64,000 nucleotides of DNA from a bacterium. GTDB taxonomy: Bacteria; Patescibacteriota; Minisyncoccia; Phycocordibacterales; UBA5272. The stretch lies in assembly GCA_023267635.1 (NCBI GenBank), contig JAHFMX010000006.1:1940-65939 (forward strand). The letters are read 5' to 3'. Of this stretch, positions 21,301 to 62,913 are shown one piece after another (the stretch's first letter is position 1; every line of letters starts with the position of its first letter). Made by a program: the position numbers and the translations under genes. The notes below the pieces were generated by a model. That model saw nothing but the letters and a program-made list of their open reading frames with translations, did not search any database and was not told the origin of the DNA.

Positions 21301-24300
21301 AGTTCTTGATCAATACAATGCTATGCCCATAAAAGTTGAAGTCTGGTCTGGCCAAGGAGAGCCCTATTCTGCTAAAGGCAAAGTGTCTTCTGCTGAAATG
21401 AGGAAAGACATAGCTGAAAATAACCATCTTTACATCTATAAAACAGAAGCAGATTCTTTCGGGCCTCCTGGTGTCATCTATGATAGTCACCCTCTTCTTG
21501 AGCAGACTGGTATTAAGGACATCAATGGAGTTCCTTTGGTCTACAATGACCTGCTCCGGGCAGTGCATGACTATTATGCACATACGATGACTGATGCTTC
21601 TTTTGGTCCAATAGGTGAAGAAGCAGCCTGGAAAACCCACATGCTGATGACACGTAGCCCTTGGGCAAAGTGGGCATTGACATCGGAAACTCGCGGGCAG
21701 AATTCATGGGTTAACTTTAGGGCTTCAGTACAAGGGCTTCCATTGAATGAGAGGGGTTTTGCCATCCAGAAAGTTGATCTACTTCCAAAGAAGTTCCTCT
21801 ACACTGGAGATATTGTTGCTGATGCTAACTTGTCAGAATTGCCTGATGAGGGTGCTCTTTACTCAAAGAATCTTAATATGTCAAAAGAAGCAAGGATGCA
21901 GCGTGCTGTAGAACAGGGGTTTGATACTAGCAAGATTATGTACCACGGAACAGGTGGCAACATTAAAGCTTTCGACCTAAGCTTCGGTGGTCAAACTAGC
22001 CATAGTGAGGTTGGCAAGCTTGGTGTGTCACTTTCTGATGCCCCACTTGTAGCAAATGAGTTTGCAGGAATGGCGGGTAGAAGAGAATTACGCAATGCGA
22101 ATGTTATGCAGCTACTTTACAAGCCTGGTAAGCAGCTTGAGATTAATTTACCAGATGCAGGTCTAGTGGACACCATAAAGAAGGCCTGGGCTGATGGGTA
22201 TGATAGTGTTCGATTCAATAACTACAGAACTCCTTTAGGCTACAAAGGTAATGTGTACATTATCAGGAGACCAAGTGACATTCGTTCTATCTACGCTGCT
22301 TTCGATCCTTCTCAACATGGCAGTTCAGATATTCTTTACTCAAAGAATCTTGACCTGTCTCATAAGGCAAGAATGGAAAGAGCTGTTGAACAGGGCTTCA
22401 ACATCAATCATAAATTCGTTCATGTGTCTCCTCATGCTTTGCCTACTGAATTAAGAAATGACAAAACCCTATATCTGAGTGATAACTTTAAATACGCAGA
22501 ACGCTATGCTAGCCCCAGTGCATCTTCAATGGGTGGAAAAACAGGAGACTACTACAGCAACTTAGCCCCAACAAGCACCCCCGTTTACATAAAAGAGAAG
22601 AATGTCTTTGATACTAGAAAACCAAAAGACCGTAAACTATTTAATGAGAAATTTTTAAACAAATATGGCAATGGCACACCACTACAAAAATCTGGGCTCC
22701 CAGATTGGGTAGAAGCAGAAGACTTTAGAGAGTTCTTTGAAGACAACAACCTTGACTATAATGGTGTTATTGTTGATGAAGGTGCTGACCCTAATGACAA
22801 AGGTGGTGTAACTAAAAGAGGTATTAGCTATGCTATGTTTGATCCTTCAGCAGTAAGATCAGTGCACGCAGCATTTGATCCTGCACAACAAGATAGCTCA
22901 GACATTCTTTATTCTAAGAAAGCCAAACCAGAACTTTACTCTGCTTTGGAAAGAGGCATTAACAATTCTCCAGATCGTATTTTCAATGCCCCGGCTTCTC
23001 AGGTTAAGTCATGGCTAAATAGCAATGCACCTAAACTTGGAATTAAATCCGATGAAATTTACTGGACTGGAATTAATGAGTACCTTGACTCTTTAGGTAA
23101 TACTAAGACCAGCAAGCAAAGTGTTCTGGAATTTATAAGTAAGAATAAAGTTAATCCGATTGATAAAATTCTTGGTGTGGAGTCAAAAGACCTTAATGAT
23201 ATTAGATTAGAAATTAATGATCTTGAAAATGAGATTGATGTACTGGAGCATAATTACCCAGGGTCTAGTGGAAATGAAGTCTATGAAGAAGATGAAGATG
23301 GTAATGAGGTCTATGCTGATAGTGACTACGTGCAGGAACTTAGGGATGAGCACGAGAAGATTATAGATGAAAAGACAAAAGAACTTGACAGATTAAAAGA
23401 AGATGAAGAAGAACTTGCAGAAGAGTCTGAAGGCAAGCATTCTGGTGATCGGTTAAACTTACCTAATGGTAGAGATTATAGGGAGCTGGTTGTAACAATA
23501 CCTGGCATTAGGAAATTTAATGAAGAAGATGCCACACACTTTGGGGATGTTGGTGAGGGTACACAAATTTCATGGATTCGATATGACTCAAGAACTGATG
23601 CTAATGGAGAGTCTTCTTTATTCCTAGAAGAGGTACAAAGTCAACGTGGAGCGGAGGGCAGAACTAAGGGCTTCGGTGACTATGATGTAGTAAAAGCACA
23701 TGAAATATCAAAAAAGCTTCATTCTATAGCACTTAAAGAAATCAATCTTGAGAGTGAATTAGAGAATAATGGAGGTACACTTAGTCCTGAAAAATGGAAA
23801 GAGCTAGAATCTTTAAAAGAAGAGCATGACTTATTAATTGCTGAACAGAAAAAAGAAGAGTCTAAGAGAACGCTGGTACCACCTGCACCCTTTATAACTG
23901 ACAGTAAGAACAAAGCTACTAACACCTACATATCACTGCTTCTAAAAAAGGCAGTCATACAGGCAATAAATAATGGGCACTCCTCTGTAAGCTGGACTAC
24001 CGGAGATCAACAAGCAGATCGTTATGATCTTAGTAAAATGGTATTAGCTATTAGGTACAATCATTTAGGAGACTTAGTTACTACTAAAGTTGATGATAGC
24101 GTGTGGCAGACAATAGCTACTGGAGTACCAGAAAATAAAATAGCTGACTACATTGGGAAAGAAGCAGCAGAAAAGTTGCTAAGTCAAGATAAGGATGTCT
24201 ATGGGCATAGAACTATTACAGGTAATGACTTAAAAGTAGGTGGTGTATGGACTGGGGATATGTATGGGGATGCTCGGGGTTTAAATGCGCAAGGCAAACC

Positions 24301-27300
24301 TTCATTGATAACTCAGGCTGCTTCAGAAATTTCACGTAAGTTCGGTGGTAGGATAGGGGCTATAAGTATCCCAGGCCTAAGATATAGGAGCGAATTTGGC
24401 AATCCATCAATAACACCAGAATTAGAACAGCCGGCTTTGATTATTACTCCTGAAATGCGAGAAAAAGTTCTTGCTGAAGATTTGCCTTTGTTCTCACGTA
24501 GAGCTACATTTACACAGACAGTACAAAATCAGTTTCAAAAAGTAAAGCACTTCGCTACCGGCTTCGATCAAGGTATAAGTACACTTGCTGATATGCGCTC
24601 TGTGCTTAGCACTGGTCACATGCCAACTAAGCACATAGATAAACAAAGTATCCTGGATAAGGTTGCTACATACTTAGTCGATTCTTCAAGACCTTTTGAT
24701 GTCTGGACAAGAAGGCTTCCTAACACTGTTAAAGCAGCTCAATTAGTACTCTCAAAAGACCTAGCTAAACGTAGAACCGCTGTCATGAGTAAAGAAGCTC
24801 TTGATACTTATTTGCGGCCTCTATCAAAAGTAATTAAGAAAATAGCTTCCGATATTGGCATGGATCATTGGGCTGCTCAGTCAATGGCGGGGTACTGGAT
24901 GTCAATGAGGTATGCCATAGAAAAGAATCAAGACTTCATTAGACAAGACAAAGAAGCTTATGAGCAAGCAATCACTAACCTAATGTCTAATCCAACTAAT
25001 GCAAGCCTAGTGAAGCTGGTAAACAAGGCTGCTGATAAGCAAGCTGCCAGGATTGCTGCCATCAATGAGCAAAGAGAAATCGACCCTAATAATGAAACAT
25101 TACAAGCAGGCTTGGCCGGCGGTTACAATGACTTCACAGCTACTAAGCTTATGAATGAAATCGAGTCCAAGATACCAAGAGCTTACCTGGAAGAAGCTGC
25201 ACAGCATATATACGACATGATGAAGTGGAAGACAGAACGAGATTTGAAAAACGGTAAGGTTACACAGGAGCAAGTAGATAGTTGGTTCAACTCACCCTTC
25301 TATGTACCATTAACCGGTGATCCAAGTGTAGACGAGTCAGAAGATAGCTTGTTCAACCCAGGCGGCATAAACCAAGCCAAAGATAAGTCAGCTGTAGGAC
25401 GTAAAGGCAGTCTGGCACAGAGCGGTATTGATGCGGCGACCGAACAAGTAGAGAAGTCAGCTAAGTACCACGGTTGGGTAGACTTCAAGAACAGACTGGT
25501 CGAAACTTATGATGAGCTTATTGCTGAGGAAATGGCACAGGGTGCTAGTAAACAAGAGGCCAAGGATAATGTAGAACGTGAGTATGGAATAACCAAGACT
25601 CCTGAAACAAGAGTCGTTGGTACAGATCAAGGTGCTTTGCTACTTCCTTCACAGAACCCCACAGGCATAACTGTTCGCAAGAACGGGGAATCTAATGTCT
25701 ATGATCTCCATAATCAGGAAGCAGTAGATGCTTTGAAGAGCGTGAATAAAGAAGATGTTCCTAGCATACTTCGTCCTGTAGCCAACTTTACCAGAACTTA
25801 TGCACGCTTCGTTACTCAGCTATTACCCGGTTTTGGTCCGGTTAACGCTATACGTGATACATGGGAACGGTCAGAAAATATCCGTACACGGGTCTTAGAA
25901 GAGTATCCTGATCTAAATATGGATCAAGTTGCAAGAGACGCTATTAAAACCGCAGCAGACCCCAGGCTAATACGGAAGATAGCCGGTGTTATGCTAGAGA
26001 ATAGTTCTCTAAGCTCTAAGTTCCCTATTAATGAAGATGACCCAGACATCAAAACCTTAAGAGCTTTGATTGAGGAAGGTGGTGCTTCCACGGTAGGTGA
26101 CTACCTTGCTACTTCAGGCAGAGACCTTGCTAAGCAAATGAAAGATTCCCTGAAGCTCTCTACAGAAGCCTGGAACCTGGTGTCAGCCTGGAATAACTCC
26201 TTCGAGTTGGTTTCATCCTTATCAATCTTCAAGGCACTTACCAGCGCAGGGGTTAACAACAAGACTGCTGCAGCCACAACCCTTAACTTAATGAACTTTG
26301 GTAAGCAGGGCACTATGATAGGCCCCCTGAAAGCTCTATATACCTTCGTCAACCCCACAGTACAGGGGGGTCATCAGCTCTTACAGACGCTGACTACACG
26401 AAAGGGGCAAGCCAGGGCAGTTGCATACACTTTGGCTGGTATTGCCCTCTATGGCATGCTACGTGCCTGGGATGGAGACGACGACGATCTTGGTGAAAAC
26501 AAGATGGACAACCAAGGTATGTTCATTTCAGAACGTAACATCCTGATACCTTATGGTGATGGAAACTACGTGAAAGTGCCTGTAGGCTTTGGTCTTCCTC
26601 AGCTTACCTGGTCTGCTGCTGTTAACCTTGATAAATGGATGTTTGGTAAACAGAAAGGTGAAGACACCGTGGCTGGTATCTTGAAGTCTACAGCTAGAAA
26701 CTTCGCCCCGGTAGCTCCCAGTGAAACCAACATTTCACAGCATCCTATTTACTGGATGGCTCAAACGTTCTCACCACAAATAGCTAAGCCTTTAGTGAAT
26801 GTAGGCTTGAATATCAACACCTTTGGTTCTTCTCTAACCAATGCAGGGTATGGTAAAGAAGGCATTTCTGAAGCTCTACAGGGCAGGAAATCAACTGCCC
26901 AGGAATGGAAGGACATAGCAGTTGAGCTGGGCAAACTGGGTATTGATCTTTACCCGGAACAAGTAAGAGAAATAGTTCGGGGCTTCGCTGTTGGGCCTGT
27001 TAATGAAGTTATCAAAGCTACAATAGAAAATCCTAATAGAGAGAAATTAGGAAGAACAACAGTCAATAACCTGGTTGATAGATGGGTATCAGTACATGAC
27101 AGTGGGGCTTTGAAAGAGAGGCTGTATTACATGCACCGTGATGAGATGAATGCCGCTGCTAGAAAAGAATCACTTGGAACTGAGCTAAGTTCAAAAGAGA
27201 CAGGTTTAGCTAAGCTTAATAGATCAATAAGCAAGCTTGAAGGCTCAGCTAATGGCAAGCGAGCTGCTGCTGCTAAAGCTATTAAAGCTGGTAAGTCAGG

Positions 27301-27385
27301 ATCAGAGTATCTTGCACAAGCCAACAAAATAAGAGATAATGCAGAGCGCATAACACGCAATTACTACAATGCACATGTGGAATAA
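15356..27385 (+). CDS. giant 4009-aa multi-domain protein, candidate injected polyvalent/ejection protein with two zincin-like HExxH motifs
   Basis: Uninterrupted 12 kb ORF. N-terminal glycine-zipper hydrophobic segments (VIGGLIGGALGG...IGGLIGGGLGYLG). HEFLH at nt 18386-18400 and HEAQH at nt 19199-19213. Four copies of a D-I/L-LYSK linker motif. C-terminal hydrophobic stretches. Confidence 0.7.
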   Translation: MANLIGQQARVKPSDDQDFLGAINSYGGASSTSATTQKNPDQEFTDTINSYGDQTGTLGAYGQTFVQAAKGVPGFIGQAIEGGTPFDQENGVDQIVKDTQKSNEEFASGSDAEQPVLGGLAKVKDIKGSAGSLTSSLATMAPTVIGGLIGGALGGPAAPLTATAGATIGGLIGGGLGYLGMSRQSENQLIRDVVDKEDQTRSAQGKPLLNQDEKVAKQNALLESGDPQLQGFAEAAGETIGNFLEIAAAMTPLGKLGNVLKAVGGPFSGALATAALRGTGILAVENIEEQATNLVQNPIAKRQGLPEATAAETAKQTTLATLPFAALGMGVGGYHDYKSAKKEKDFQEYLAGASTEELQSNIQTLQTPSPEDDEQTAQYKQSLAQAYTDELNSRGTTDENNNQATGAEQPSGIGGIANRPTTLDRGTPKQEPGTNGQGVNVTEPAGASRRSVEPIPQEETRQPGLDERGSTLSNISDEGLKKAIELLNKHETDSPEAIKSKEDAITFYSNELERRKPPTQPIEETQNEKQKITNETDANANEANAETGQGQEGLQVIQPNITQPNITEEGTNLEQAGTATSKNAGQTTKEETGTTTVSSTGEGGLVNVNQAAPVTGIGAEQAKQGTSFGQPGLAESVEAQQKEEVVGSIPTTASVGATGAQKSKAPVVSEGAPQPATAGGQTTPDYSYLSDKGFTPEEIQHVGEASKTHKDLNGWARGRFGYDRVKGVNFTQSIAPNAPAINNEVDAAAHEAAASPLNDLAHPSQAQIEAENPKLGHIENFHGMSISIENPEGSVRSGVSLEGRPWQNTLKNHYGYIKGTVGNDNDHVDTFIGPDVGSQKAFIVNQNHVTRGIGTNRFDEHKVILGAKTKKQALQIYHDNYEKGWQGMGSITQMSVGQLKEQLGTGKLTKPVLQEQVSQQETNQSNKPEAPTPKGYMSTGDVFSRLTSKQRAFHKSGKLIVVPTEEQLPASLRPKKGEESSIPGLYHPKEDKIYVVAHNIKHDELNGLLAHEFLHRAVRVDKVFKGKFDKFDRGLTARFNMAGRGIGSDIEKAAYKHVVDAGTPQHQLLDEYKSYLVQEYAKNPDSFVGEIKRLIEEFIAAIKVALVKSGLDSGFIEKLTPADLYEMSKYGAEQVESTQPQKNNEALKSFIGVKSQTAPKYELSTAMSDIEAGENPEGVRKDTGWFKGADEHWRFEIDDSEAKLDEKEVNTLKGYYKLGRLSGLEKILIHPKLFAAYPQLRTIGIKFAKLQEGVGGGTSQDGKFITLNVDLKDDKILSVLLHEAQHAVQIHEGWAGGGSPSTFQKEFVERVELLEKIVKDINNELSVQAGIMNKYEVRGSYRKYTAPEGYTAAAKYDELMQERSDAAKSLRRIGLLNDVADTSRKIYSRLYGEIEARNVQRRMDFSAQEREKFSPEGTQDYANKDAVILWANADVKGLLFPENEADLLYSKKTKTQEGIKLNERKPTEISTKETSEYTKRNILNTSRLDRTSHAEKRYFQERSGNSAERVRGIKGVFSPGKSITSDFEKAGVPSPEYHEWFNGNKMVEKYMGIMTKAQNTKFGAAVYIYPKEDYRKMRIFVTPDELSGFALKTDGDIVSVVSLPEAPSGRVYSMMALATELGGTKLDAFDTVLPEIYAVSGFKEVGRVNWNEDYKPDNWDKEVFSKFNNGEPDVVFMEYDPTYSPFKRSEIEVSLSNAQHTIPGISKLTKEFVDGDTTAGVLLRELGHDSLDYLTSGIKSVSISYKDPTGVYGGDKEPSLGVAASFEEKDRKEVLRALAQFAKNFDQEQFHVLGSVGTNTEVMHVYDDGSYNTKVYSFTLNKVPSEKEVSKLINNSGLYGLTISGSTLESYYVEQDQNDANEYKEWTSKIDKLHEIISGRNLKSYGEKVARLWVYGSGNRAISYGQIEGKFHPSYTDQGQKASQRVASRLIGRDVKAPSIPKTVTPEQKALQASIAQAYDEMRINALDQTNVIRAYKELASEVLDQYNAMPIKVEVWSGQGEPYSAKGKVSSAEMRKDIAENNHLYIYKTEADSFGPPGVIYDSHPLLEQTGIKDINGVPLVYNDLLRAVHDYYAHTMTDASFGPIGEEAAWKTHMLMTRSPWAKWALTSETRGQNSWVNFRASVQGLPLNERGFAIQKVDLLPKKFLYTGDIVADANLSELPDEGALYSKNLNMSKEARMQRAVEQGFDTSKIMYHGTGGNIKAFDLSFGGQTSHSEVGKLGVSLSDAPLVANEFAGMAGRRELRNANVMQLLYKPGKQLEINLPDAGLVDTIKKAWADGYDSVRFNNYRTPLGYKGNVYIIRRPSDIRSIYAAFDPSQHGSSDILYSKNLDLSHKARMERAVEQGFNINHKFVHVSPHALPTELRNDKTLYLSDNFKYAERYASPSASSMGGKTGDYYSNLAPTSTPVYIKEKNVFDTRKPKDRKLFNEKFLNKYGNGTPLQKSGLPDWVEAEDFREFFEDNNLDYNGVIVDEGADPNDKGGVTKRGISYAMFDPSAVRSVHAAFDPAQQDSSDILYSKKAKPELYSALERGINNSPDRIFNAPASQVKSWLNSNAPKLGIKSDEIYWTGINEYLDSLGNTKTSKQSVLEFISKNKVNPIDKILGVESKDLNDIRLEINDLENEIDVLEHNYPGSSGNEVYEEDEDGNEVYADSDYVQELRDEHEKIIDEKTKELDRLKEDEEELAEESEGKHSGDRLNLPNGRDYRELVVTIPGIRKFNEEDATHFGDVGEGTQISWIRYDSRTDANGESSLFLEEVQSQRGAEGRTKGFGDYDVVKAHEISKKLHSIALKEINLESELENNGGTLSPEKWKELESLKEEHDLLIAEQKKEESKRTLVPPAPFITDSKNKATNTYISLLLKKAVIQAINNGHSSVSWTTGDQQADRYDLSKMVLAIRYNHLGDLVTTKVDDSVWQTIATGVPENKIADYIGKEAAEKLLSQDKDVYGHRTITGNDLKVGGVWTGDMYGDARGLNAQGKPSLITQAASEISRKFGGRIGAISIPGLRYRSEFGNPSITPELEQPALIITPEMREKVLAEDLPLFSRRATFTQTVQNQFQKVKHFATGFDQGISTLADMRSVLSTGHMPTKHIDKQSILDKVATYLVDSSRPFDVWTRRLPNTVKAAQLVLSKDLAKRRTAVMSKEALDTYLRPLSKVIKKIASDIGMDHWAAQSMAGYWMSMRYAIEKNQDFIRQDKEAYEQAITNLMSNPTNASLVKLVNKAADKQAARIAAINEQREIDPNNETLQAGLAGGYNDFTATKLMNEIESKIPRAYLEEAAQHIYDMMKWKTERDLKNGKVTQEQVDSWFNSPFYVPLTGDPSVDESEDSLFNPGGINQAKDKSAVGRKGSLAQSGIDAATEQVEKSAKYHGWVDFKNRLVETYDELIAEEMAQGASKQEAKDNVEREYGITKTPETRVVGTDQGALLLPSQNPTGITVRKNGESNVYDLHNQEAVDALKSVNKEDVPSILRPVANFTRTYARFVTQLLPGFGPVNAIRDTWERSENIRTRVLEEYPDLNMDQVARDAIKTAADPRLIRKIAGVMLENSSLSSKFPINEDDPDIKTLRALIEEGGASTVGDYLATSGRDLAKQMKDSLKLSTEAWNLVSAWNNSFELVSSLSIFKALTSAGVNNKTAAATTLNLMNFGKQGTMIGPLKALYTFVNPTVQGGHQLLQTLTTRKGQARAVAYTLAGIALYGMLRAWDGDDDDLGENKMDNQGMFISERNILIPYGDGNYVKVPVGFGLPQLTWSAAVNLDKWMFGKQKGEDTVAGILKSTARNFAPVAPSETNISQHPIYWMAQTFSPQIAKPLVNVGLNINTFGSSLTNAGYGKEGISEALQGRKSTAQEWKDIAVELGKLGIDLYPEQVREIVRGFAVGPVNEVIKATIENPNREKLGRTTVNNLVDRWVSVHDSGALKERLYYMHRDEMNAAARKESLGTELSSKETGLAKLNRSISKLEGSANGKRAAAAKAIKAGKSGSEYLAQANKIRDNAERITRNYYNAHVE

Positions 27386-52820: not shown

Positions 52821-54977
52821 ATGTCAGTAGCCCCTGAGAGTGCTAGAGAGCTTCTAAGAGCGAAGGTCGAAGTAGCCAGAGAGATAGAGAAGCGAGAGTG
52901 TGAAAAGTCTCTAGCAGAGTTCTGTCGCTCTGCATGGCACATCATAGAGCCGGGAACTCCACTCAAGTGGAACTGGCACATTGACACTATCTGCGCTTAC
53001 ATCCAGGCTTTCCATGAGGGGAAGTTACCGGATAAGAGGTTGATCATAAACGTACCTCCAGGGACTTTAAAAAGTATCATTGTCTCTGTGATGTACCCAT
53101 CTTGGGCTTGGATCAAAGACCCTTCTACTCGGTTCTTGGCTATCAGTAACGCTGCTTCTTTGGCTACTCGTGATGCATTGAGAATGAAGTCAATCGTCAC
53201 ATCCCCTTGGTATCAGAGCCACTGGCCAACGACATTGAGGATCGATCAGAATGAGAAGAACCTGTTTGTTAATGGCACACAAGGCTTCAGGCAGTCACAA
53301 GGTATAAGTGCATGTACCACTGGGAAGCGTGGAGATTGCTTTCCAGAATATATGGAAGTGTCTACAGAGCATGGGATGAAGAAGATTACAGAAGTTAAGG
53401 TCAATGACTTGGTTTGGTCTATGAACACTAAGACCGGGGGTGTAGAGTTAAAGCCAGTCACTCACTTAGTGCACAATGGCACAAGTGAGATTGTTGAAGT
53501 AGTGCTTAGTAATGGTCAGATAATACACTGTACACCTGACCATAAGGTTTGGACTATTGAAGAGGGTATGGTTAGGGCTGATAGCTTAGTGTCTGTTAAG
53601 GGCTCTGAGCTCTCTCTTGACATCATTAGCATAATTGGCACTAATTCCAAACAATTTAGCAAGCTCTTTACCAGTCATGGTGGAGTTAACAAACCTCTCT
53701 TCACTCCTGATAAGACCTGTGTTGCTGATAGAGTAAGCACCCTCATAACCAGGGATAGTACGCCACTCAATGTTGTTAGTAGTAGAAGTATTGGGCATAT
53801 TAGTGATACCTACTGTTTGTGTGTGAAAGACAATGCTACATTATTTGTAGGAACAAGACAAGTGCTTGTCTCCAATTGTCTAATAATAGATGACCCCGTA
53901 GACAGCCAACAAGCCTTCTCTGATGTTATTAGAGAATCAGTTAACAATACGTGGGATAATGCTTTGTCATCAAGATTAAATGACATGACAAAATCCGGAG
54001 TGCTATTAATCCAACAAAGGGTTAATGAACTTGACCTTACTGGGCATCTGCTAAAAAAAGTAAAATCACATTGGACACATCTTAGCATTCCAATGAGGTA
54101 TGAAGGAACATCAACGTTTAATCCCATTAAAGATATTGGAAATGCTGAAGTAAAAGACCCAAGAATAAAAAAGAGTCAACTACTATTTCCTTCTCGATTT
54201 CCTGAGCGTGCAGTTCAATCGTTAGAGGAAGACTTAGGAGAGTATGGTACTTCGGCTCAGCTTCAACAAAGACCGGTTCCGGCAGGCGGCGGAATTATAA
54301 AAAAACATTGGTGGCGTGTCTTACCAGAAGACGAAATGCCAAAGATCATCAACGTCTTCATCAGCTTCGACACTGCGTTCTCAGAAGCAGACTCAAAGAC
54401 TTCTGCGTTCTCCGCCGCGACGCGCTGGGGTATCTTCTGGCATGAGCAAAGACAACGCTACTGTCTCTTGGCGTTGGGCATGTGGTTCGCACGGGTAGGC
54501 TACGACGAGCTACGTGCTACAGTCCAGGCCATGAACAAAGACCATGATCCCGATGTGCTACTCATCGAAAAAAAGGCAACAGGCATAAGTATCATACAAG
54601 ATTTGAAGAGATCAGTTCCAGGTAAGGTAAGAGCGTACTGCCCAGGCAAGGGAGAAGACAAGATCAGTAGAGGAAACTCAGTATCCCCTATGGTGCAATC
54701 AGGTCAATGCTATGTACCTAACAAGACTTGGGCTTTAGGTGATGGTAAGGGCAAGCTAGGTTTGATTGATTACATTGCTAGTTTTCCCGGAGGTGCACCA
54801 CCCGCGCCAGACATATTTGACTCATTTTCAGCGGCACTCATATTCATGCGCTCAGGCAATTGGCTCGGAGATCATGATGACGACAAAGACTGGACTAATG
54901 TTATCACACACGTGAGCTCTGAAGAGGAGGATGAAGACCTTGAAGACTCAGCAATACCAACTCGATTTTATGGCTAA
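52821..54977 (+). CDS. terL: terminase large subunit (ATPase plus nuclease) interrupted by a mini-intein
   Basis: N-terminal LIINVPPGTLKS (Walker-A-like, PPxxGKS class); Walker B LIIDDP re-formed when the extein junction GKRGD | CLIIDDP is joined. Confidence 0.7.
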   Translation: MSVAPESARELLRAKVEVAREIEKRECEKSLAEFCRSAWHIIEPGTPLKWNWHIDTICAYIQAFHEGKLPDKRLIINVPPGTLKSIIVSVMYPSWAWIKDPSTRFLAISNAASLATRDALRMKSIVTSPWYQSHWPTTLRIDQNEKNLFVNGTQGFRQSQGISACTTGKRGDCFPEYMEVSTEHGMKKITEVKVNDLVWSMNTKTGGVELKPVTHLVHNGTSEIVEVVLSNGQIIHCTPDHKVWTIEEGMVRADSLVSVKGSELSLDIISIIGTNSKQFSKLFTSHGGVNKPLFTPDKTCVADRVSTLITRDSTPLNVVSSRSIGHISDTYCLCVKDNATLFVGTRQVLVSNCLIIDDPVDSQQAFSDVIRESVNNTWDNALSSRLNDMTKSGVLLIQQRVNELDLTGHLLKKVKSHWTHLSIPMRYEGTSTFNPIKDIGNAEVKDPRIKKSQLLFPSRFPERAVQSLEEDLGEYGTSAQLQQRPVPAGGGIIKKHWWRVLPEDEMPKIINVFISFDTAFSEADSKTSAFSAATRWGIFWHEQRQRYCLLALGMWFARVGYDELRATVQAMNKDHDPDVLLIEKKATGISIIQDLKRSVPGKVRAYCPGKGEDKISRGNSVSPMVQSGQCYVPNKTWALGDGKGKLGLIDYIASFPGGAPPAPDIFDSFSAALIFMRSGNWLGDHDDDKDWTNVITHVSSEEEDEDLEDSAIPTRFYG
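53337..53876 (+). mobile_element. 180-aa mini-intein (Hint domain, no homing-endonuclease insert) inside terL
   Basis: Starts at Cys (CFPEYMEV, block A); TPDH block-B-like; ends VLVSN followed by extein Cys; inserted exactly at the Walker B motif. Confidence 0.55.
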
Positions 54978-54994: not shown

Positions 54995-55273
54995 ATGAAC
55001 AAACTAATTTTAATCTCTATACTTTTAACTGGATGTGCTACTGCAAGCAGAGACATCACATATTCTGATGGCACTACATCACACCTCTATGTCTTTGAAC
55101 TTGGAAGGACTGAGGCAATAACAGCACTCAATGCTTCTGAGTCCAGGGACTCAAGTAACTTATCAGTAGGTTCTGCTAATGCAGATGTGAATGTAAAGGC
55201 TATTGATGCTTCAGGTGCATTGATTGGGGATGCTATTGGTACAGCTCTAAAAATATTTGTAGGTAAACCATAA
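54995..55273 (+). CDS. lipoprotein (lipobox LLTGC); candidate spanin component
   Basis: MNKLILISILLTGCATAS signal plus lipobox; glycine-rich amphipathic C-terminus; immediately upstream of the endolysin. Confidence 0.45.
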   Translation: MNKLILISILLTGCATASRDITYSDGTTSHLYVFELGRTEAITALNASESRDSSNLSVGSANADVNVKAIDASGALIGDAIGTALKIFVGKP

Positions 55274-55848
55274 TGGCAGACTTTAAAAAAGCATACAACA
55301 TAACGATCAAGAACGAAGGACTTTACAGTGTAGACCCAGATGATATGGGGGGAGAAACTTTCAATGGCATATCCAGAAAGAATTGGCCTAGTTGGAGTGG
55401 GTGGAGTGTAGTAGATGGTGCAAAAGTAAATGGAAAGCTAAGAATAACACCAGACTTCATGAACAAGATTGCTCCATTGGTTTTTAATTTCTACAAGGCA
55501 AACTTCTGGGACGCAGTGCGGGGGGATGGCATACCTAGTCAAGCTATTGCCAATGAATTATTTGACACCGCTGTGAATGTTTCTGTGCACCAAGCCACCA
55601 TGTTCTTGCAAGCGTCTCTGAACATCATGAATAACAGGGGGAAATTGTGGCAGGATATTAAGGAAGATGGTAAATTTGGTGCAGGTACTTTGAGCTCTCT
55701 GCAAACTGCGGTCAAGGTTCGTGGGGAAGCAATGGTGTACAAAGTTCTTAACTGCTATCAAGGAGCTTTTTATATCAATCTCATGGAGAACAAAGAACTT
55801 AATGAGAAGTACATCGGTTGGTTCAACAGAGTTAACACAAACATATAA
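55273..55848 (+). CDS. endolysin: GH108 lysozyme-like domain plus PG_binding_3 domain
   Basis: IKNEGLYSVDPDDMGGETFNGIS (GH108 EGGY...DP.D.GG.T..GI motif); FYKANFWD...LFDTAVN...DGKFGAGTL typical of PG_binding_3. Confidence 0.7.
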   Translation: MADFKKAYNITIKNEGLYSVDPDDMGGETFNGISRKNWPSWSGWSVVDGAKVNGKLRITPDFMNKIAPLVFNFYKANFWDAVRGDGIPSQAIANELFDTAVNVSVHQATMFLQASLNIMNNRGKLWQDIKEDGKFGAGTLSSLQTAVKVRGEAMVYKVLNCYQGAFYINLMENKELNEKYIGWFNRVNTNI

Positions 55849-55869
55849 AACAAGTAGGAGTTAAATATC

Positions 55870-57771
55870 ATGGCTACTAATATTACAGTTAATGATAAAA
55901 AATTAACAAACGTTGCAACTAATCAAGCAATATGTACTAATTTCATTAGCACAATACGATATGCAAACTTTTCGACTACTTATTATGTAACAGAAGATGT
56001 AGCTCAAATCTCTGTAATCTTTCCAAACTGGTATGTTGATCAAGGTGCCACTCAAACAGAACTAGGCTCCGGTTCAGATATTACAATAGAGGCAAGTATA
56101 GAGTACCCACCAAATGTATTTAACCCATTAACATTTTCTGGTAAAACTATAGGCACCATTCCAAATGGTGAAAATATTGTTGCTGATGCTGTGAGACTGC
56201 GACTACAAAAAGGTGAAAAATTTAAACTAAGAGGCTACTTGGTTACACCTTCAGGAATGCCATTAATAACTACTATTTTCATTGATCCTGAAGGAACTCT
56301 ATGTGAAACAAGCGCGACATTATTGACAAATAAAACTTTGGGCGGTGATATAGTCAATACATCTTCTGGTTTTGATTCACAATCTTATGGAAGCGTCGCC
56401 ATATTAGGCTTAGCGTCTGGGCCTAGTGTATATGTTATAGGAACGTCCAGGACTAGAGGCTCATTAGACATTAAGGACCTATCTCTAGGGACTGGTGAAG
56501 TATGCAGAACATTGGCTAATAGCAATATTTCTTTTTGTAATGCAGCCGTCGGCAGTGATGGAATATTCTACTTTTTGAGATCAAATGCTAAAAGAATTAA
56601 ATTACTACAGTACTATAACAACATTGTTATTTCACATGGTGTGAATGATCTTCTTTACTCCCCCGGAGCATTTTTCTCTTATTACAAAGCTGTATTGGAG
56701 TTAATACCAAAAGATATAGCAGTTTTCTTGTGTACAATAGCACCTTGGACTACTTCTACCGATGGATGGGCAACTACGACAAACCAAACTATTACAGCTA
56801 ATGAGCCAAATAGACTAGTATTTAATTCAACCTTAAAAAATGGAAAAATTAAAGGAGTATCTGGGTACTTTGACATAAATGATGCTCAATCAAGTAGCTT
56901 TCTATCTGGTAAATGGGAGCCAGGGGCAACTGATGACGGCATACATGCAAATGGTTTTGGGTATCAATTGCCAGTTTATAGAAAAGCAATAGACATAACA
57001 AAGTTTAAGCCACAAACAAACACGCAAGATAAAATAGAGTTCCCATATACTGAGGTATTCACATTTACATGGTCGTCTGGGGGAGCTAAAACATTAACCT
57101 TTACACCGACATCTGATGCTGGGATAGTCTTTGAAAACTCAGATGGTGTTATACAAAATAATGGGTTTTCTAGCACTGTAAAAAAAGGTGAGAAAATGAG
57201 GATTAAGGCAAAGTATCCAGAATTTATTGGGTATCTTAACTTCAATTCAAAAGGAGTTATTAGCACTGTATTTCCTAGTCTTACAAAGTACGTTGAACTT
57301 GTATCTTTTGACTGCTCTTCTAACACTATCTCTGGAACAATAGGAACCCTAGATTACAATCCGTTGCTCGTTAACTTTTTTGTACTTCTTAATCAATTGA
57401 CTGGAAGCATACCAAGCTTAACCAAAAATACCTTACTAGGCTCTTTCCAAGCACATTTTAATCAAATATCTGGGGGTATTCCTGATCTGAGTGCTAATAC
57501 TGTTTTAACAACATTTGATGTTCATAGTAATCAACTTACAACTTATGCAGGCGGAACCATAGGGCCTATACTAAGAACATTCAATGCTTCTAGTAACTTA
57601 CTACCTGCTGCTGAAATAAATAAAATACTGGCTGCTTTTGTAGCAGCAAACATAACCACAGGAACAAGAACGCTGACACTTGGAGGAACTGGTAATGCTG
57701 CTCCTACTGGTCAGGGAGTTACAGATAAAGCAACGCTTATAACAGCTGGCTGGACTGTTAGTACTAACTAG
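55870..57771 (+). CDS. tail fibre/spike with SGNH-hydrolase-like esterase domain and C-terminal leucine-rich-repeat-like segment
   Basis: SGNH block III ISHGVNDLL and block V TDDGIHANGFG; C-terminal NQLTGSIPSLTKNTLLGSFQAHFNQISGGIPDLSANTVLTTFDVHSNQLT. Confidence 0.5.
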   Translation: MATNITVNDKKLTNVATNQAICTNFISTIRYANFSTTYYVTEDVAQISVIFPNWYVDQGATQTELGSGSDITIEASIEYPPNVFNPLTFSGKTIGTIPNGENIVADAVRLRLQKGEKFKLRGYLVTPSGMPLITTIFIDPEGTLCETSATLLTNKTLGGDIVNTSSGFDSQSYGSVAILGLASGPSVYVIGTSRTRGSLDIKDLSLGTGEVCRTLANSNISFCNAAVGSDGIFYFLRSNAKRIKLLQYYNNIVISHGVNDLLYSPGAFFSYYKAVLELIPKDIAVFLCTIAPWTTSTDGWATTTNQTITANEPNRLVFNSTLKNGKIKGVSGYFDINDAQSSSFLSGKWEPGATDDGIHANGFGYQLPVYRKAIDITKFKPQTNTQDKIEFPYTEVFTFTWSSGGAKTLTFTPTSDAGIVFENSDGVIQNNGFSSTVKKGEKMRIKAKYPEFIGYLNFNSKGVISTVFPSLTKYVELVSFDCSSNTISGTIGTLDYNPLLVNFFVLLNQLTGSIPSLTKNTLLGSFQAHFNQISGGIPDLSANTVLTTFDVHSNQLTTYAGGTIGPILRTFNASSNLLPAAEINKILAAFVAANITTGTRTLTLGGTGNAAPTGQGVTDKATLITAGWTVSTN

Positions 57772-57788: not shown

Positions 57789-57812
57789 ATATTATTATTA
57801 TTATTATTATTA
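57789..57812. repeat. (TTA)8 microsatellite in intergenic spacer
   Basis: Read directly. Confidence 0.8.
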
Positions 57813-57867: not shown

Positions 57868-58713
57868 ATGGCAACACCAACTGTAACACTTTGGCCTTCA
57901 GCATCAAGTACAAAGCTGTCCAATATTTTATATGACCTAAGCACTAATACAACAGCCGGTGTGGGCACGTTTGTTGTCCCAAGCAATGTCAGTCTTATCT
58001 ATGTTGATGCTTGTAGTGGAGCCGGTGGCTCAGCCGGTGGACATTCTGCTGACCCAGGCGGTGGTGGTGGAGCCGGTGGATCAGGGCAGTGTGTTAATAT
58101 GTTATCTTTGGCAGTAACACCAGGAAGCACCCTAACATTAACAATCGGCGCAGCAGGAACACCTGGTACAGCAGGCAATGACGGTGCAACTTCAGGAGGA
58201 AACACGACAATAGATGGTGTTATATGGACTGGTTCATCAACGCCAAATTTATTCAAATTAACAGGAGGCATTCTTGCCTCAAAAGGTACTGTTACTAATG
58301 GTGGAGCAGGTGGTTCAGCAGGTAGTTCTTCTGCTGCTGCTGGAGCTACTGGCACTGGCACTGGTGCAAGTGGTGGTACAGTTTCTTCAGTTATTGGAGT
58401 TTTAAATTCGAGAGCTTATTCTGCGGCAGGTGGTTCAGCAGGTGGTGGTGCTACAGGCCCAGGAGCTGGTGGTGCTGGTACTGCTATAGGTATAGCAACA
58501 GATTCCAGTATATTTATTTCTGGTGGTGCAGCATCTGGCACTAAGGGTGGTGGTGCAGCAGGTACTAATTCACAATATGGTAAAGGCGGAGCTGGTGGAA
58601 CTGGCACAACTCCAGGTGGTAATGCTACTGGATATGGATCGTCAGGTGGCGGCGGAAGTGCTACTACAGGTGGTGGTTTAAGTATGCCAGGCTTTGTTAT
58701 GATTTATTATTGA
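57868..58713 (+). CDS. glycine-rich virion protein
   Basis: GAGGSAGGHSADPGGGGGAGGSG and repeated GG-x-G tracts, about 30% Gly; AGGAG SD. Confidence 0.45.
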   Translation: MATPTVTLWPSASSTKLSNILYDLSTNTTAGVGTFVVPSNVSLIYVDACSGAGGSAGGHSADPGGGGGAGGSGQCVNMLSLAVTPGSTLTLTIGAAGTPGTAGNDGATSGGNTTIDGVIWTGSSTPNLFKLTGGILASKGTVTNGGAGGSAGSSSAAAGATGTGTGASGGTVSSVIGVLNSRAYSAAGGSAGGGATGPGAGGAGTAIGIATDSSIFISGGAASGTKGGGAAGTNSQYGKGGAGGTGTTPGGNATGYGSSGGGGSATTGGGLSMPGFVMIYY

Positions 58714-59613: not shown

Positions 59614-59784
59614 ATGAATAAAGTAGAAGAAACTTTAAAACACCTGGTTCTTAGAGGCCCTACGAAAAGTAGAGTAAACCTGCATAAGAATGCTAATGGT
59701 AGTTTGGACAATGCGTACTCGATTGGAGTTAAGGACGGTAAAATACTTTTGGCTAGAGAACTATTGAAGGAACTTAATAAATGA
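59614..59784 (+). CDS. small ORF (56 aa) coupled to portal start
   Basis: ATGA overlap with 59781. Confidence 0.25.
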   Translation: MNKVEETLKHLVLRGPTKSRVNLHKNANGSLDNAYSIGVKDGKILLARELLKELNK

Positions 59785-62213
59785 GTACAATGAATTATGG
59801 TCTTGGTGACGAAGATATAGCAGTTCCAACTTGGGAAGAAGCAGCTAAACCTGATATTGTAGAAGTTATGAAATTTGTTGAGGAGGCTGAGGCTAATGGA
59901 CTTGCACCTGAAGAAGTTTTATCACATGATCAGATGATGGTGTGGGAAGAATTCTTGGCTACAATGAATAGTGCAGAGCAGCCTCTTGAGCACTTTGCTG
60001 ATTTAACTGACTACATTGATAGCGTTGATCACAGTTACTTAGGGGGCTTGGCTTCCGATGTAATCAACTGGGTTATGTGGGACGAGGAAACCAGGAGAGA
60101 TTGGGAGTACCGTGAGGCAGAAGGCATTAGATTACTAGGAGTCTCAGACACACCATTAAGCAAAGCTCTCTTTGAAGGAGCGAGTCAGTTAGTGCACCCG
60201 ATACTAGCAGAGGCAACAATAGACTTCCATTCAAGAATGATGACTGAAATATGGCCTCCTGAAGGACCAGTCAAAGCCATTGTTCTTGGAGACTCAACAC
60301 CAGAACTAGAAGAACAGGCTGATCGTGTTTCAGATTACATGAACTATCAGTACACTGAAGACATGCCTGGTGGGTTTGAAGAAACTGACGCTATGCTGTT
60401 TAGGCTTACGCTTTCAGGTTCTTGCTTTAAGAAAACCTACAATGACCCTCTTACAGGTAAAAACGTTTCTAAGAAGGTAGAGGCTTCAGACTTCATAGTG
60501 CCCTACTCAGCTACAGACTTGGTATCAGCTCCACGCTTCACCCACAGATACCGGATGAATCACAACACAGTACTTAAACATCAACAAGCCGGATACTTCA
60601 CTAAACTTGTTGATGTACAACTGCCTACAACTACCAATGACACAACACAGAAATCCCCTCAACGAAGAGAGATAGATAGCGTAGAAGGGAGCAATGAAGG
60701 TTCTTCTATTGAAGACCCTACACATATTTTAATGGAAATGGTTGTGGACTTGGAAATTCCTGGAATGGAGGACACTGATCCAGTTACCGGTAAACCTACA
60801 GGCATCCTTAGACCCTACTTAGTTATTGTTGATTATGACTCTCAAAAGATTCTGCGAGTCCAAAGAATGTGGGAGCAGGATGATGAGAAGAAAGAAAAAA
60901 TTGTTGAGTACACTCATTTCAGACTTTTCCCTGGCCTTGGATTCTATGGTATGGGTCTTTTGCATTTTATGGGCAATCTGGTACTTGGTGCTAGTGGTTC
61001 GCTAAACAGTTTACTTGACTCAGCTGCATTCAGCAATTTCCAAGGGGGCTACAGATCAAGTGATGCACGAATATCTGGAGATCAGAAACCTCTGAAGCCC
61101 GGTGAATGGCGTGAGCTTAAGAACGTAACCGCAGAGGACTTACAGAAGGCTTTTTTCCGAGTGCCTTATGGGGAGCCTTCAGATGTTTTGTTTGATGTTC
61201 TGAAGTACCTGGATGAAAAAGCTTCAACCAGTTTCCTCTCAGCCGGACAAGTGATGACCGGCGAAGCAAACAACAATGCCCCGGTTGGGACAACCCTAGC
61301 TCTTATTGAGCAAGGCTCCAAGCCATTCAATGCAGTCCACATTCGTTTGCATCGTGCTATGCACGAAGAGTTCAGACGGTTGGCTAATCTTAATGGTAAG
61401 AACGTCCCTGAAGAAGGATACCCATACGCCATAGCAAGTAAGTCTAAAGTTATTTTTGCTGCAGACTTCGATGAAAGAGTCGATGTAATACCTGTTTCTG
61501 ACCCTAACATCATTAGCTCAACACAAAGGATTCACATAGCCCAAGCTGTTTTGCAAGTGGCAGAAGCCCATCCTGATGAAGTTAATATTTCTGAAGCAAT
61601 CAAGGCTTTCTTTACAGCGATCAGAGTGCCTAATGTTGATGCACTTATAGCAGATAACCAAGCAATAAAAGCCAATCAACAAAGAATGGCAGACATTGAG
61701 TATGAAGCCAAGCAGAAGGATATTGCCAAAGTACAGGCTGAGATAAACAAGCTTGAGGCTGAACGTGTACAAGTTACATTGACAGGAATGTACACAGCAT
61801 ACCAGGCGGCGCAAGTTGCCGTACAAGATGCAATGGGCACACCTGCTACGGTTGACCCTAAGACAGGAGTGGTTATTCAAGGGACTGCTCCTGGCCTTTC
61901 AGTTGCTACAGTTGCAGAACAGCTATTTCAAAGTGCCGGTGGTAAAGATTGGAATGGTTCACCACTACTTGATGAGGCACATGCTCAAGCACAACCACAG
62001 CAACCAGTTTTATCAAACTTTGCTCAAACACCTATGCAAGCACAGACAGCAGCTGTTGGTAATAACACAAGTCCAATGTTTCCGGCTAACCCTAAGATGC
62101 CTGAAGTGGGTACACCACCTTCAACAGCTCCTGTGGCAGCTCCTGCAAGTGGGTTAGTTGGAGCTAATGCAGGGATCGAAACACAAAGAGCTGATGGTGG
62201 ACTGAGTGCCTAG
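59781..62213 (+). CDS. putative portal protein with long C-terminal helical (barrel-like) extension
   Basis: 810 aa; sits between the terminase and the scaffold-like gene; C-terminal Q/A/K-rich helix (QRMADIEYEAKQKDIAKVQAEINKLEAERVQ) reminiscent of P22-type portal barrels. Confidence 0.45.
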   Translation: MSTMNYGLGDEDIAVPTWEEAAKPDIVEVMKFVEEAEANGLAPEEVLSHDQMMVWEEFLATMNSAEQPLEHFADLTDYIDSVDHSYLGGLASDVINWVMWDEETRRDWEYREAEGIRLLGVSDTPLSKALFEGASQLVHPILAEATIDFHSRMMTEIWPPEGPVKAIVLGDSTPELEEQADRVSDYMNYQYTEDMPGGFEETDAMLFRLTLSGSCFKKTYNDPLTGKNVSKKVEASDFIVPYSATDLVSAPRFTHRYRMNHNTVLKHQQAGYFTKLVDVQLPTTTNDTTQKSPQRREIDSVEGSNEGSSIEDPTHILMEMVVDLEIPGMEDTDPVTGKPTGILRPYLVIVDYDSQKILRVQRMWEQDDEKKEKIVEYTHFRLFPGLGFYGMGLLHFMGNLVLGASGSLNSLLDSAAFSNFQGGYRSSDARISGDQKPLKPGEWRELKNVTAEDLQKAFFRVPYGEPSDVLFDVLKYLDEKASTSFLSAGQVMTGEANNNAPVGTTLALIEQGSKPFNAVHIRLHRAMHEEFRRLANLNGKNVPEEGYPYAIASKSKVIFAADFDERVDVIPVSDPNIISSTQRIHIAQAVLQVAEAHPDEVNISEAIKAFFTAIRVPNVDALIADNQAIKANQQRMADIEYEAKQKDIAKVQAEINKLEAERVQVTLTGMYTAYQAAQVAVQDAMGTPATVDPKTGVVIQGTAPGLSVATVAEQLFQSAGGKDWNGSPLLDEAHAQAQPQQPVLSNFAQTPMQAQTAAVGNNTSPMFPANPKMPEVGTPPSTAPVAAPASGLVGANAGIETQRADGGLSA

Positions 62214-62517: not shown

Positions 62518-62913
62518 ATGAATTTTGAAGCTGAAAACGTGCCACTTGAAAAGTTACCTCAACCAGCAGGTTGGAGAATTTTAGTTGCACCGGTTAAGAT
62601 TGAAAAAGTTTCACAAGGCGGGATTGTCCTTGTCGATGATACTACTGAAGCAATGCAGTACTTCAGAAATGTTGGTAAAGTTTTGGCGGTTGGTAGTGAA
62701 TGCTACAAGCATCCAAAGTTTCAAGGTGGCATTGAGCTCACTGTTAAAGAACCGAGAGCCTGGTGTAAAGTGGGCGACATTATCCATTTCAATTCATTCA
62801 ATGGTGCGGACATAGTCCTCCATTATGAAGGGGAAGCGATAAAGTTAAAAATAATGAATGACGATTGTGTATTTTCGGTTATCCCTGATACGGATGTTCT
62901 GAAACTTGTATAA
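62518..62913 (+). CDS. GroES/Cpn10-like co-chaperonin
   Basis: Aligns by eye to E. coli GroES across both halves: RILVAPVKIEKVSQGGIVL ... GKVLAVG (RVIVKRKEVETKSAGGIVL ... GEVLAVG) and CKVGDIIHFN (VKVGDIVIFN). Confidence 0.7.
   Translation: MNFEAENVPLEKLPQPAGWRILVAPVKIEKVSQGGIVLVDDTTEAMQYFRNVGKVLAVGSECYKHPKFQGGIELTVKEPRAWCKVGDIIHFNSFNGADIVLHYEGEAIKLKIMNDDCVFSVIPDTDVLKLV

Follow-up and report, generated by a model that had tools for sequence, protein, structure and literature searches.

A phage gene joining a predicted carbohydrate esterase to a plant-type leucine-rich repeat module: a candidate accessory receptor-binding protein

We analyzed a 64,000-nucleotide stretch of DNA (contig JAHFMX010000006.1 of assembly GCA_023267635.1, positions 1,940 to 65,939 of the forward strand; “the window” below) and concentrated on a single gene, 55870..57771 on the + strand, whose product (the target) combines, from N- to C-terminus, a beta-sandwich resembling a carbohydrate-binding module (CBM), an SGNH esterase domain, a small beta-sandwich, and a plant-type leucine-rich repeat (LRR) solenoid closed by a helical C-cap. 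The alignments and structure models make it very probable that this protein functions as a carbohydrate O-acetylesterase with an LRR binding module. With less assurance, we lean toward the view that it deacetylates polysaccharide of the host surface, that the LRR provides its binding specificity, and that it serves as an accessory receptor-binding protein of its carrier, an uncultured aquatic phage. The open reading frame (ORF) is intact, with an ATG start and 633 codons for amino acids, just as an earlier prediction made from the sequence without database searches (the original prediction) had delimited it, and a ribosome-binding site (AGGAG, 55856..55860, +), read from the sequence, lies 9 nt before the ATG. 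Because three further contigs of metagenomic origin (two SRA runs and an ENA assembly) carry copies with 0 mismatches over 1902 nt, the target is a real, circulating sequence.

Residues ~10-380 are predicted, from sequence conservation and models, to form a two-domain carbohydrate esterase with Ser193, Asn259, Asp356 and His359 in place. The AlphaFold2 (AF2) model of residues 1-440, built on a family-only alignment, has a mean predicted local distance difference test score (pLDDT) of 86 and a predicted template-modeling score of 0.82; a single alignment that mixed N- and C-terminal homologs had misaligned the esterase (pLDDT ~30 at residues 290-390), and residues 1-440 were remodeled. The CBM-like domain (residues ~10-185; 55897..56424, +) is modeled with pLDDT mostly >90 and matches the CBM-like domain of the acetyl-xylan esterase AcXE (7tok) as well as the N-terminal domains of 9kr0 and 7toh; its residues S76, Y79 and R121 are invariant in the family alignment of 28 sequences. 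The SGNH domain (residues ~186-380; 56425..57009, +; pLDDT >90) has the three-layer alpha/beta/alpha SGNH fold in the model, and Foldseek matched both domains together, over 416-428 columns and with target TM-scores of ~0.65, to the polyvinyl-alcohol esterase 9kr0 (E 1.4e-20) and the acetyl-xylan esterase PbeAcXE 7toh (E 1e-18). The model had 64 PDB fold matches at E <= 0.001, and the best 50 of these 64 were almost all SGNH/GDSL-type esterases. Comparison of the family profile with solved enzymes gave the same picture (9kr0, E 7e-14; 7tog, E 7e-7 over chain residues 84-384), with blocks I, III and V in register; a homolog search with that profile added six sequences only, owing to its candidate prefilter. 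We read the enzyme as a probable O-acetylesterase because esterases of this two-domain CBM+SGNH type head both the structural and the profile matches.

The catalytic blocks can be followed along the chain. Block I is G191-T192-S193 (56440..56448, +), with S193 the predicted nucleophile; the block II region is V227-G-S-D-G231 (56548..56562, +; from the alignment columns); block III is G257-V-N259-D260 (56638..56649, +), aligning to the GVND of 9kr0 and PbeAcXE; and block V is D355-D356-G-I-H359 (56932..56946, +), which would supply the Asp and His of the triad and aligns with the D..H of the same two enzymes. G191, S193 and H359 are invariant, and N259, D260 and D356 nearly so, both in the 28-homolog alignment and in one of 16 homologs. 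At block I the target lines up with GDS in 9kr0 and with GNS in PbeAcXE (in the 9kqz chain the motif is GDA, with Ala at the Ser position); the middle residue, Asp in most relatives (G-D-S), has become Thr in the target, in the homolog P0014 and in the ortholog from a sister phage (contig L001). The original prediction had pointed to GxND and DGIH blocks, proposed an O-acetyl esterase, and staked that proposal on the presence of a catalytic Ser block; all of these motifs are there, the Ser block, which it had not located, being conserved across the 28 sequences, and the type of enzyme proposed agrees with the structural and profile matches.

The closest architectural parallel lies in characterized carbohydrate esterases of the PbeAcXE kind (PMC9105624). 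In AcXE a CBM-like domain (1-175) packs on the SGNH domain (180-385), the triad is S188/D363/H366, and the substrate sits at the domain interface (PMC9105624). When the target is set beside the FjoAcXE-like esterases, an unclassified carbohydrate esterase family (PbeAcXE 7TOG/7TOH, CspAcXE 7TOJ), and the polyvinyl-alcohol esterase 9KQZ/9KR0, its domain boundaries and its predicted triad (S193/D356/H359) correspond almost exactly to those of AcXE; the CBM-like domain is likewise packed on the SGNH domain, and both the Foldseek and the profile matches span the two. There are also differences: identity to AcXE and 9kr0 is 16-19%, and those enzymes lack an LRR; FjoAcXE has a predicted secretion signal (PMC9105624), whereas the target starts directly with the CBM-like fold; block I reads GNSI in AcXE and GDSI in 9kr0 but GTSR in the target (family consensus G-D-S-R); and the uronic-acid-binding Arg139 of the AcXE CBM falls opposite a variable, gapped segment of the target family. 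The family-invariant R121 was considered as the counterpart of Arg139 and rejected, the two occupying different positions in the profile alignment. Since neither the GNSI motif nor Arg139 is conserved, we do not file the target as an AcXE-family member; it shares the architecture only. The direct sequence family of residues 30-432 is instead PHROG 8480 (E 3.7e-39), together with actinophage proteins named “minor tail protein” or “SGNH hydrolase-type protein”; tblastn relatives of the target occur in Mesorhizobium, Rhizobium, Shewanella, Arthrobacter and Gordonia phages at 24-30% identity. The phage proteins of this family have had their role annotated by inference only, and none of them carries the LRR cassette.

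PHROG 8480 and RefSeq annotations of homologs also carry the label “lysophospholipase L1-like esterase,” and the SGNH superfamily does include lipases, so the enzyme might instead attack membrane lipids, as a lipase or lysophospholipase. We consider this very improbable, as the label is a generic transfer, the best two-domain matches of the same CBM+SGNH architecture are a polymer esterase and a carbohydrate acetyl-esterase, and further fold matches of the SGNH domain are sialate, xylan and peptidoglycan O-acetylesterases. In addition, one homolog, P0017, adjoins polysaccharide-modifying genes: on its temperate phage contig (L093/L094) the esterase homolog is followed by glycosyltransferases (GT2), RgpF, an Acyl_transf_3 acyltransferase and an integrase, a set that looks, from its gene content, like a surface-polysaccharide (O-antigen-type) conversion module. 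For this reason a polysaccharide substrate is favored over peptidoglycan or lipid.

Beyond the SGNH domain, a linker of low confidence in the AF2 model leads to the small beta-sandwich (residues ~394-465; 57049..57264, +; beta strands at pLDDT 64-81), a domain common to the LRR-cassette proteins P0024, P0034 and P0109. From residue ~470 on, pLDDT is >90. The LRR solenoid (residues ~466-575; 57265..57594, +) consists of one degenerate and four clear 23-residue repeats of the form LxxFxCxxNQLTGSIPSLxxNTx, with NQLTGSIP at residues 508-515 and NQISGGIP at 531-538, and is closed by the helical C-cap (residues 576-633; 57595..57768, +; helices at 580-593 and 615-625, pLDDT >90), which ends ...LGGTGNAAPTGQGVTDKATLITAGWTVSTN. 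A phmmer search of PDB sequences with the C-terminus gave 65 matches; the 60 listed are almost exclusively plant LRR proteins, the best being the MIK2 receptor kinase (E 1e-17), and Foldseek superposed the solenoid on the Arabidopsis BIR2 ectodomain with a root-mean-square deviation of 1.6 A over 107 columns at 34% identity. Thus the LRR nature of the C-terminus, as against a generic beta-sandwich, is borne out, as are the two repeats by which it had been recognized; the 200 residues allotted to the repeats in the original prediction were too many, since repeats and cap together occupy ~165 and the small beta-sandwich before them is separate.

The cassette has the repeat consensus of the plant-specific (PS) LRR class, LxxLxLxxNxL(T/S)GxIPxxLxx, and shares the signature LxxLxLxxNxL(T/S)GxIP with the ectodomains of MIK2, BIR2, BRI1, SERK1 and FLS2; this is a resemblance of signature and fold, with no claim of common descent. 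It departs from that class in its period (23 residues, not 24, with about five repeats in the target), in its helical C-cap, which ends GWTV(T/S)TN and has no Cys pair whereas plant ectodomains have Cys-pair N- and C-caps, and in its distribution, which is essentially phage-only. The 23-residue period and the helical C-cap lead us to treat the cassette as a PS-like but distinct phage-borne subfamily.

The C-terminal region has 160 metagenome homologs at ~50% identity, most of them proteins of 150-410 aa with the shared end ...LGGTGNAAPTGQG.TDKATL..RGWTVTTN. Taken over 410 unique repeats, drawn from 143 proteins of the family, the consensus reads L..F.C..NQLTGSIPSLSANT, with L3, F6, C8, N11, L13, G15, I17, P18 and L20 as the conserved structural positions. 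In these 410 repeats, and with no correction for phylogeny, the entropy of the x positions of the beta-strand LxxLxLxxN (4, 5, 7, 9 and 10, on the concave side) is 3.2-3.7 bits, compared with 1.0-2.7 bits at the solvent-exposed convex and loop positions (QLTGSIPSLSANT). Such a pattern is as expected for a diversifying concave binding face. The number of repeats within the family ranges from 2 to more than 12, and it differs between the window phage and its sister (below). Since the concave positions are the most variable and the repeat number changes between sister phages, the LRR is best regarded as a putative specificity module, in keeping with the host-recognition role proposed for it in the original prediction; the same two features would imply a ligand that changes rapidly.

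The sister phage is represented by contig L001, from the same metagenome as the window phage. Its portal is 89% identical to that of the window, its GroES-like protein 99% and its 277-aa protein 83%, whereas the orthologs of the target are 55% identical overall (SGNH domain 62%; small beta-sandwich 41%, the most divergent segment; LRR 62%; C-cap 86%), the L001 LRR having a two-repeat insertion relative to the target along with substitutions at concave positions. The sister phage moreover carries two esterase+LRR genes in tandem: the target ortholog (L001:2-1666) and, directly after it, a paralog, P0002 (L001:1725-3653; 41% identity), with the junction at L001:1655-1732. P0002 occupies the slot held in the window by a gene for a glycine-rich protein, and it is a mosaic: upstream of it lie a remnant of the endolysin 3' end and the ribosome-binding-site context that also precedes the target, and its opening 14 residues (MPTPTVASWPSGSG) are similar to the N-terminal sequence of the glycine-rich protein of the window (MATPTVTLWPSASS). 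Fast divergence, duplication and junction-mediated exchange of cassettes are typical of host-range determinants. Compared with the core structural genes, the target has diverged rapidly and exchanged cassettes, as expected of tail fibers and tailspikes.

A degenerate-pattern scan located the LRR cassette on at least 93 IMG/VR viral contigs; the same approach, applied to one-genome-per-species contigs of 185,579 species, gave one match, on a phage-sized contig (58.7 kb) of a metagenome-assembled genome, and tblastn against 50,697 GenBank phage records gave 0. Matches of the LRR part in BFVD were mostly giant-virus LRR proteins, with a few uncultured Caudovirales proteins. From the IMG/VR, species-genome and GenBank counts, the cassette appears to be a phage-borne module, so far confined to uncultured phages; the earlier statement that such repeats are rare in phage receptor-binding proteins therefore holds for cultured phages and fails for the uncultured contigs of IMG/VR. 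Since uncultured phages have the cassette in abundance while cultured phages and bacterial genomes essentially lack it, catalogs of receptor-binding proteins and host-prediction tools trained on isolates would miss it. Most annotated neighbors of LRR-cassette genes in IMG/VR are tail fiber, tail and virion structural proteins, including PHROG 863, which the glycine-rich protein of the window also matches.

The N-terminal partners of the cassette vary: there are free-standing LRRs with their own N-cap, lactonase/PASTA and DUF4185 domains, and tail-protein segments, together with LamG-like N-termini that were read by eye from the sequences and that Pfam did not confirm on the two proteins scanned. 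Fusion to the esterase is rare, with no SGNH+LRR fusion among 83 LRR ORFs from IMG/VR loci and, among the 4393 matches obtained when 1.84 billion cluster representatives were searched exhaustively with HMMER, only P0150, P0002 and P0153 as other full-length esterase+LRR fusions. We put forward, tentatively and with more doubt than conviction, the wider idea that the sandwich, the 23-residue LRRs and the GWTVTTN cap make up a family of LRR modules for receptor binding that is restricted to phages and gives their host recognition a new class of scaffold, one that would diversify by repeat number and concave hypervariability, like plant receptors or lamprey variable lymphocyte receptors, and that would have been grafted onto varied N-terminal modules (esterase, LamG-like, lactonase/PASTA, DUF4185, tail-fiber), often with a 79-aa partner gene. 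The specificity module proposed for the target is an LRR solenoid, and such scaffolds are most familiar from the immune receptors of plants and animals; an LRR with a well-defined variable face would be an attractive programmable binding scaffold, and the cassette offers a way to work out which hosts and receptors an uncultured aquatic phage group uses.

The ORF of ~79 aa mentioned here is conserved directly downstream of the LRR-cassette gene in 27/62 non-redundant IMG/VR loci (examples are L020:8479-8718, L027:8476-8715 and L032:1335-1574) and has the consensus MKIYSNQ..(V/I)IPFPDEV.TTE.EWWMIYD..TK.I.IEP.QCSGYTSSP.TMVIADT.EEL..YI. in which no transmembrane segment is predicted and for which no PHROG or Pfam match was obtained. 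Its product may be a dedicated partner or chaperone. A second recurrent feature is the start of the proteins: the target, the glycine-rich protein and a good many of the cassette proteins open with the pattern M-(A/P)-T-x-(S/T)-(I/V)-x-(I/V/L), as in MPTTSISITPQ, MATNITVND and MATPTVTLWPS (target 55870-55900; glycine-rich protein 57868-57900; IMG/VR LRR ORFs), which may reflect a common first strand or docking peptide, or coincidence.

The LRR might also bind something other than the host, such as a eukaryotic or mucus ligand (in the manner of bacteriophage adherence to mucus), or another protein of the virion or phage, with the esterase acting independently. Conservation of the C-cap across unrelated phages is what a constant partner would produce, the ~79-aa ORF would be a candidate for one, and a paper on a coral-mucus vibriophage speculated on a role of LRRs in adherence (PMC10945359). 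We nonetheless judge this quite improbable: the variability sits on the concave strands and the repeat number changes between sister phages, the ~79-aa ORF is absent from the window, and the cassette is here fused to an enzyme aimed at bacterial-type polysaccharides. For viral proteins with LRRs, the reports come chiefly from viruses of eukaryotes, and the tail module of that vibriophage has an HHpred LRR match of only 10% probability (PMC10945359); beyond this nearest mention, the full-text literature that we searched describes no LRR module for receptor binding in phages.

When phages recognize their hosts, SGNH esterases now count as a major alternative to depolymerases, and SGNH receptor-binding proteins are experimentally established esterases (PMC13123978). 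Those of E. coli phage G7C (gp63.1), Pectobacterium phages PP99 and Possum, and the SGNH tail fibers of Klebsiella prophages resemble our proposal in that a deacetylating SGNH esterase, not a depolymerase, is carried on a phage host-recognition protein (PMC13123978, PMC9569702, PMC6989608). They differ from the target in being described as tail fibers or tailspikes, often with gp11/gp12-type or tailspike N-terminal domains (PMC13123978); the target has an AcXE-type CBM+SGNH unit, no recognizable anchor, and an LRR C-terminus, and no phage tailspike structure was among its best 50 PDB fold matches. By analogy, we envision that the concave face of the LRR, the most variable surface of the family, would bind a ligand of the host envelope and so position the esterase on the surface polysaccharide, from which it would strip O-acetyl groups (of O-antigen, capsule or exopolysaccharide); the phage would in this way recognize and modify its receptor without depolymerizing it, like the known SGNH esterase tailspikes. 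The protein would ride on the virion, docked via its short N-terminus or via a neighbor such as the glycine-rich gene product, and its specificity would be swapped by cassette recombination.

Several observations weigh against this proposal. At block II the family consensus is S-G-D, while the target has G228-S229-D, with the Gly off by one residue (the motif is S-A-D in P0002 and G-G-D in the L001 ortholog); the shift may be tolerated, since the contribution of this Gly is a backbone amide. The Pfam Lipase_GDSL_2 match (E 7.5e-4) reaches 20.5 bits and remains below the curated cut-off of 32.9; with LRR_4 at E 0.048 in the target, Pfam alone would miss both the esterase and the LRR domains. 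The C-cap is nearly invariant across the family, which is unusually conserved for a receptor-binding tip. The target has no recognizable virion-anchoring N-terminus (the CBM-like fold begins at about residue 10, and no PHROG or Pfam tail N-terminal family matched), no trimerization element was seen in it, and LRR solenoids are usually monomeric. Finally, the gene directly follows that of the endolysin, and CBM-SGNH homologs come right after lysis genes, where the late operon ends, in Rhizobium phage RHph_Y25, Shewanella phage QDWS, Gordonia phage Wrigley and the temperate phage contig of P0017; in Mesorhizobium phage Lo5R7ANS the homolog lies between the genes for the small (TerS) and large (TerL) terminase subunits. 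Post-lysis placement thus recurs in four unrelated lineages besides the window, with TerS/TerL in a fifth, these being all the cultured or temperate contexts examined (L088-L091, L093/L094).

The last of these observations suggest another interpretation, in which the target would be a soluble, lysis-associated esterase outside the virion, released with the endolysin and deacetylating envelope polysaccharide, either destroying receptors on debris to free the progeny or removing O-acetyl groups from peptidoglycan for the GH108 muramidase, with the LRR as a tether to the envelope. In the window the gene order is TerL, a 92-aa lipoprotein, the GH108 endolysin, the target, the glycine-rich protein, small ORFs and the portal, and the target lies 22 nt after the endolysin (55273..55848, +; Pfam Glyco_hydro_108, E 2.9e-18; PG_binding_3, E 7e-12). 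Added to the placement of its homologs and the missing N-terminal anchor is a fold match to the peptidoglycan O-acetylesterase 4k3u (E 2e-6), although this is far weaker than the matches to CBM+SGNH esterases. The divergence of the target (55%, against 89% for the portal) and the tandem paralogs would be unexpected for an enzyme working on conserved peptidoglycan, and LRR-cassette genes elsewhere have tail genes for neighbors rather than lysis genes. Accessory receptor-binding genes, too, usually sit beside the lysis genes where the late operon ends. Family members are fused to tail-fiber N-termini: the fusion homolog P0153 has a 110-aa N-terminal extension matching PHROG tail-fiber and tailspike N-terminal families (Pfam gave no support for this extension as a tail-fiber N-terminus), and the CBM-SGNH homologs P0163 and P0171 have N-terminal extensions matching a tail-fiber PHROG with E down to 3e-30. 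The homolog P0007, for its part, lies directly after large tail-type genes. On balance a soluble esterase seems unlikely, though it has to be taken seriously, and by analogy with the relatives fused to tail-fiber N-termini, virion attachment is the more likely location of the target. The name “tail fiber” given in the original prediction is accordingly more than can be established for a protein that lacks an anchoring N-terminus and follows the endolysin gene, and for which we infer virion attachment from its relatives.

The position of the gene between the lysis genes and the portal, on the other hand, had been described correctly, as had its distance from the other tail genes: a beta-helix, tailspike-like gene lies at 2329-4644 (+). 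The sequence pattern of its 771-aa product suggests a parallel beta-helix; this protein is 44% identical to the product of a gene on contig L005 (which also has an LRR gene), and is likely to be the main tailspike. It is followed by a gene for a 421-aa protein (4648-5913, +) with ~20-residue repeats (PSLF.NTNTFY....V).

Directly downstream of the target is the gene for the 281-aa glycine-rich protein (57868..58713, +; Pfam Gly_rich_2, E 3e-7; PHROG 863 “tail fiber assembly,” E 3e-7). The promoter scan around the target gave nothing better than shuffled sequence, and the terminator scan found none between the endolysin, target and glycine-rich genes. Within the 96-nt spacer between the last two is a (TTA)7-type microsatellite (57790-57812), identical in all three other samples covering the spacer.

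As to the carrier, megablast of the 12-kb region against the 50,697 GenBank phage records returned no close relative, and the closest cultured portals to that of the window (59781-62213) belong to aquatic phages, namely Roseobacter phages CRP-901/902, Pelagibacter phages HTVC023P/027P, and Planktothrix and Caulobacter phages, at 30-41% identity. A 4009-aa ORF (15356-27385, +) had raised the suspicion of an N4-like phage; this was rejected, the PHROG matches of the ORF being endolysin-type, virion structural and DarB-like, the portals pointing elsewhere, and megablast being empty. Residues ~730-920 of the ORF are an endolysin-type segment, other segments match PHROGs of DarB-like and large virion proteins, and the product is presumably a giant internal or ejected virion protein.

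The TerL gene (52821-54977) is interrupted by a mini-intein at ~53340-53876 (Pfam Intein_splicing, E 3.4e-9, above cut-off, with a Hint match), and its PHROG terminase matches are split between residues 19-173 and 353-680. Inside TerL lies an antisense ORF of 70 aa (53586-53798, -; IEWRTIPGYEGAYSISNTGLIRS), which we take to resemble a NUMOD4-type homing-endonuclease N-terminus. Between the portal gene and that of the 277-aa acidic protein, which may be a scaffold, there is a gene for a GroES-like co-chaperonin (62518-62913, +; PHROG 3188, E 1.7e-15).

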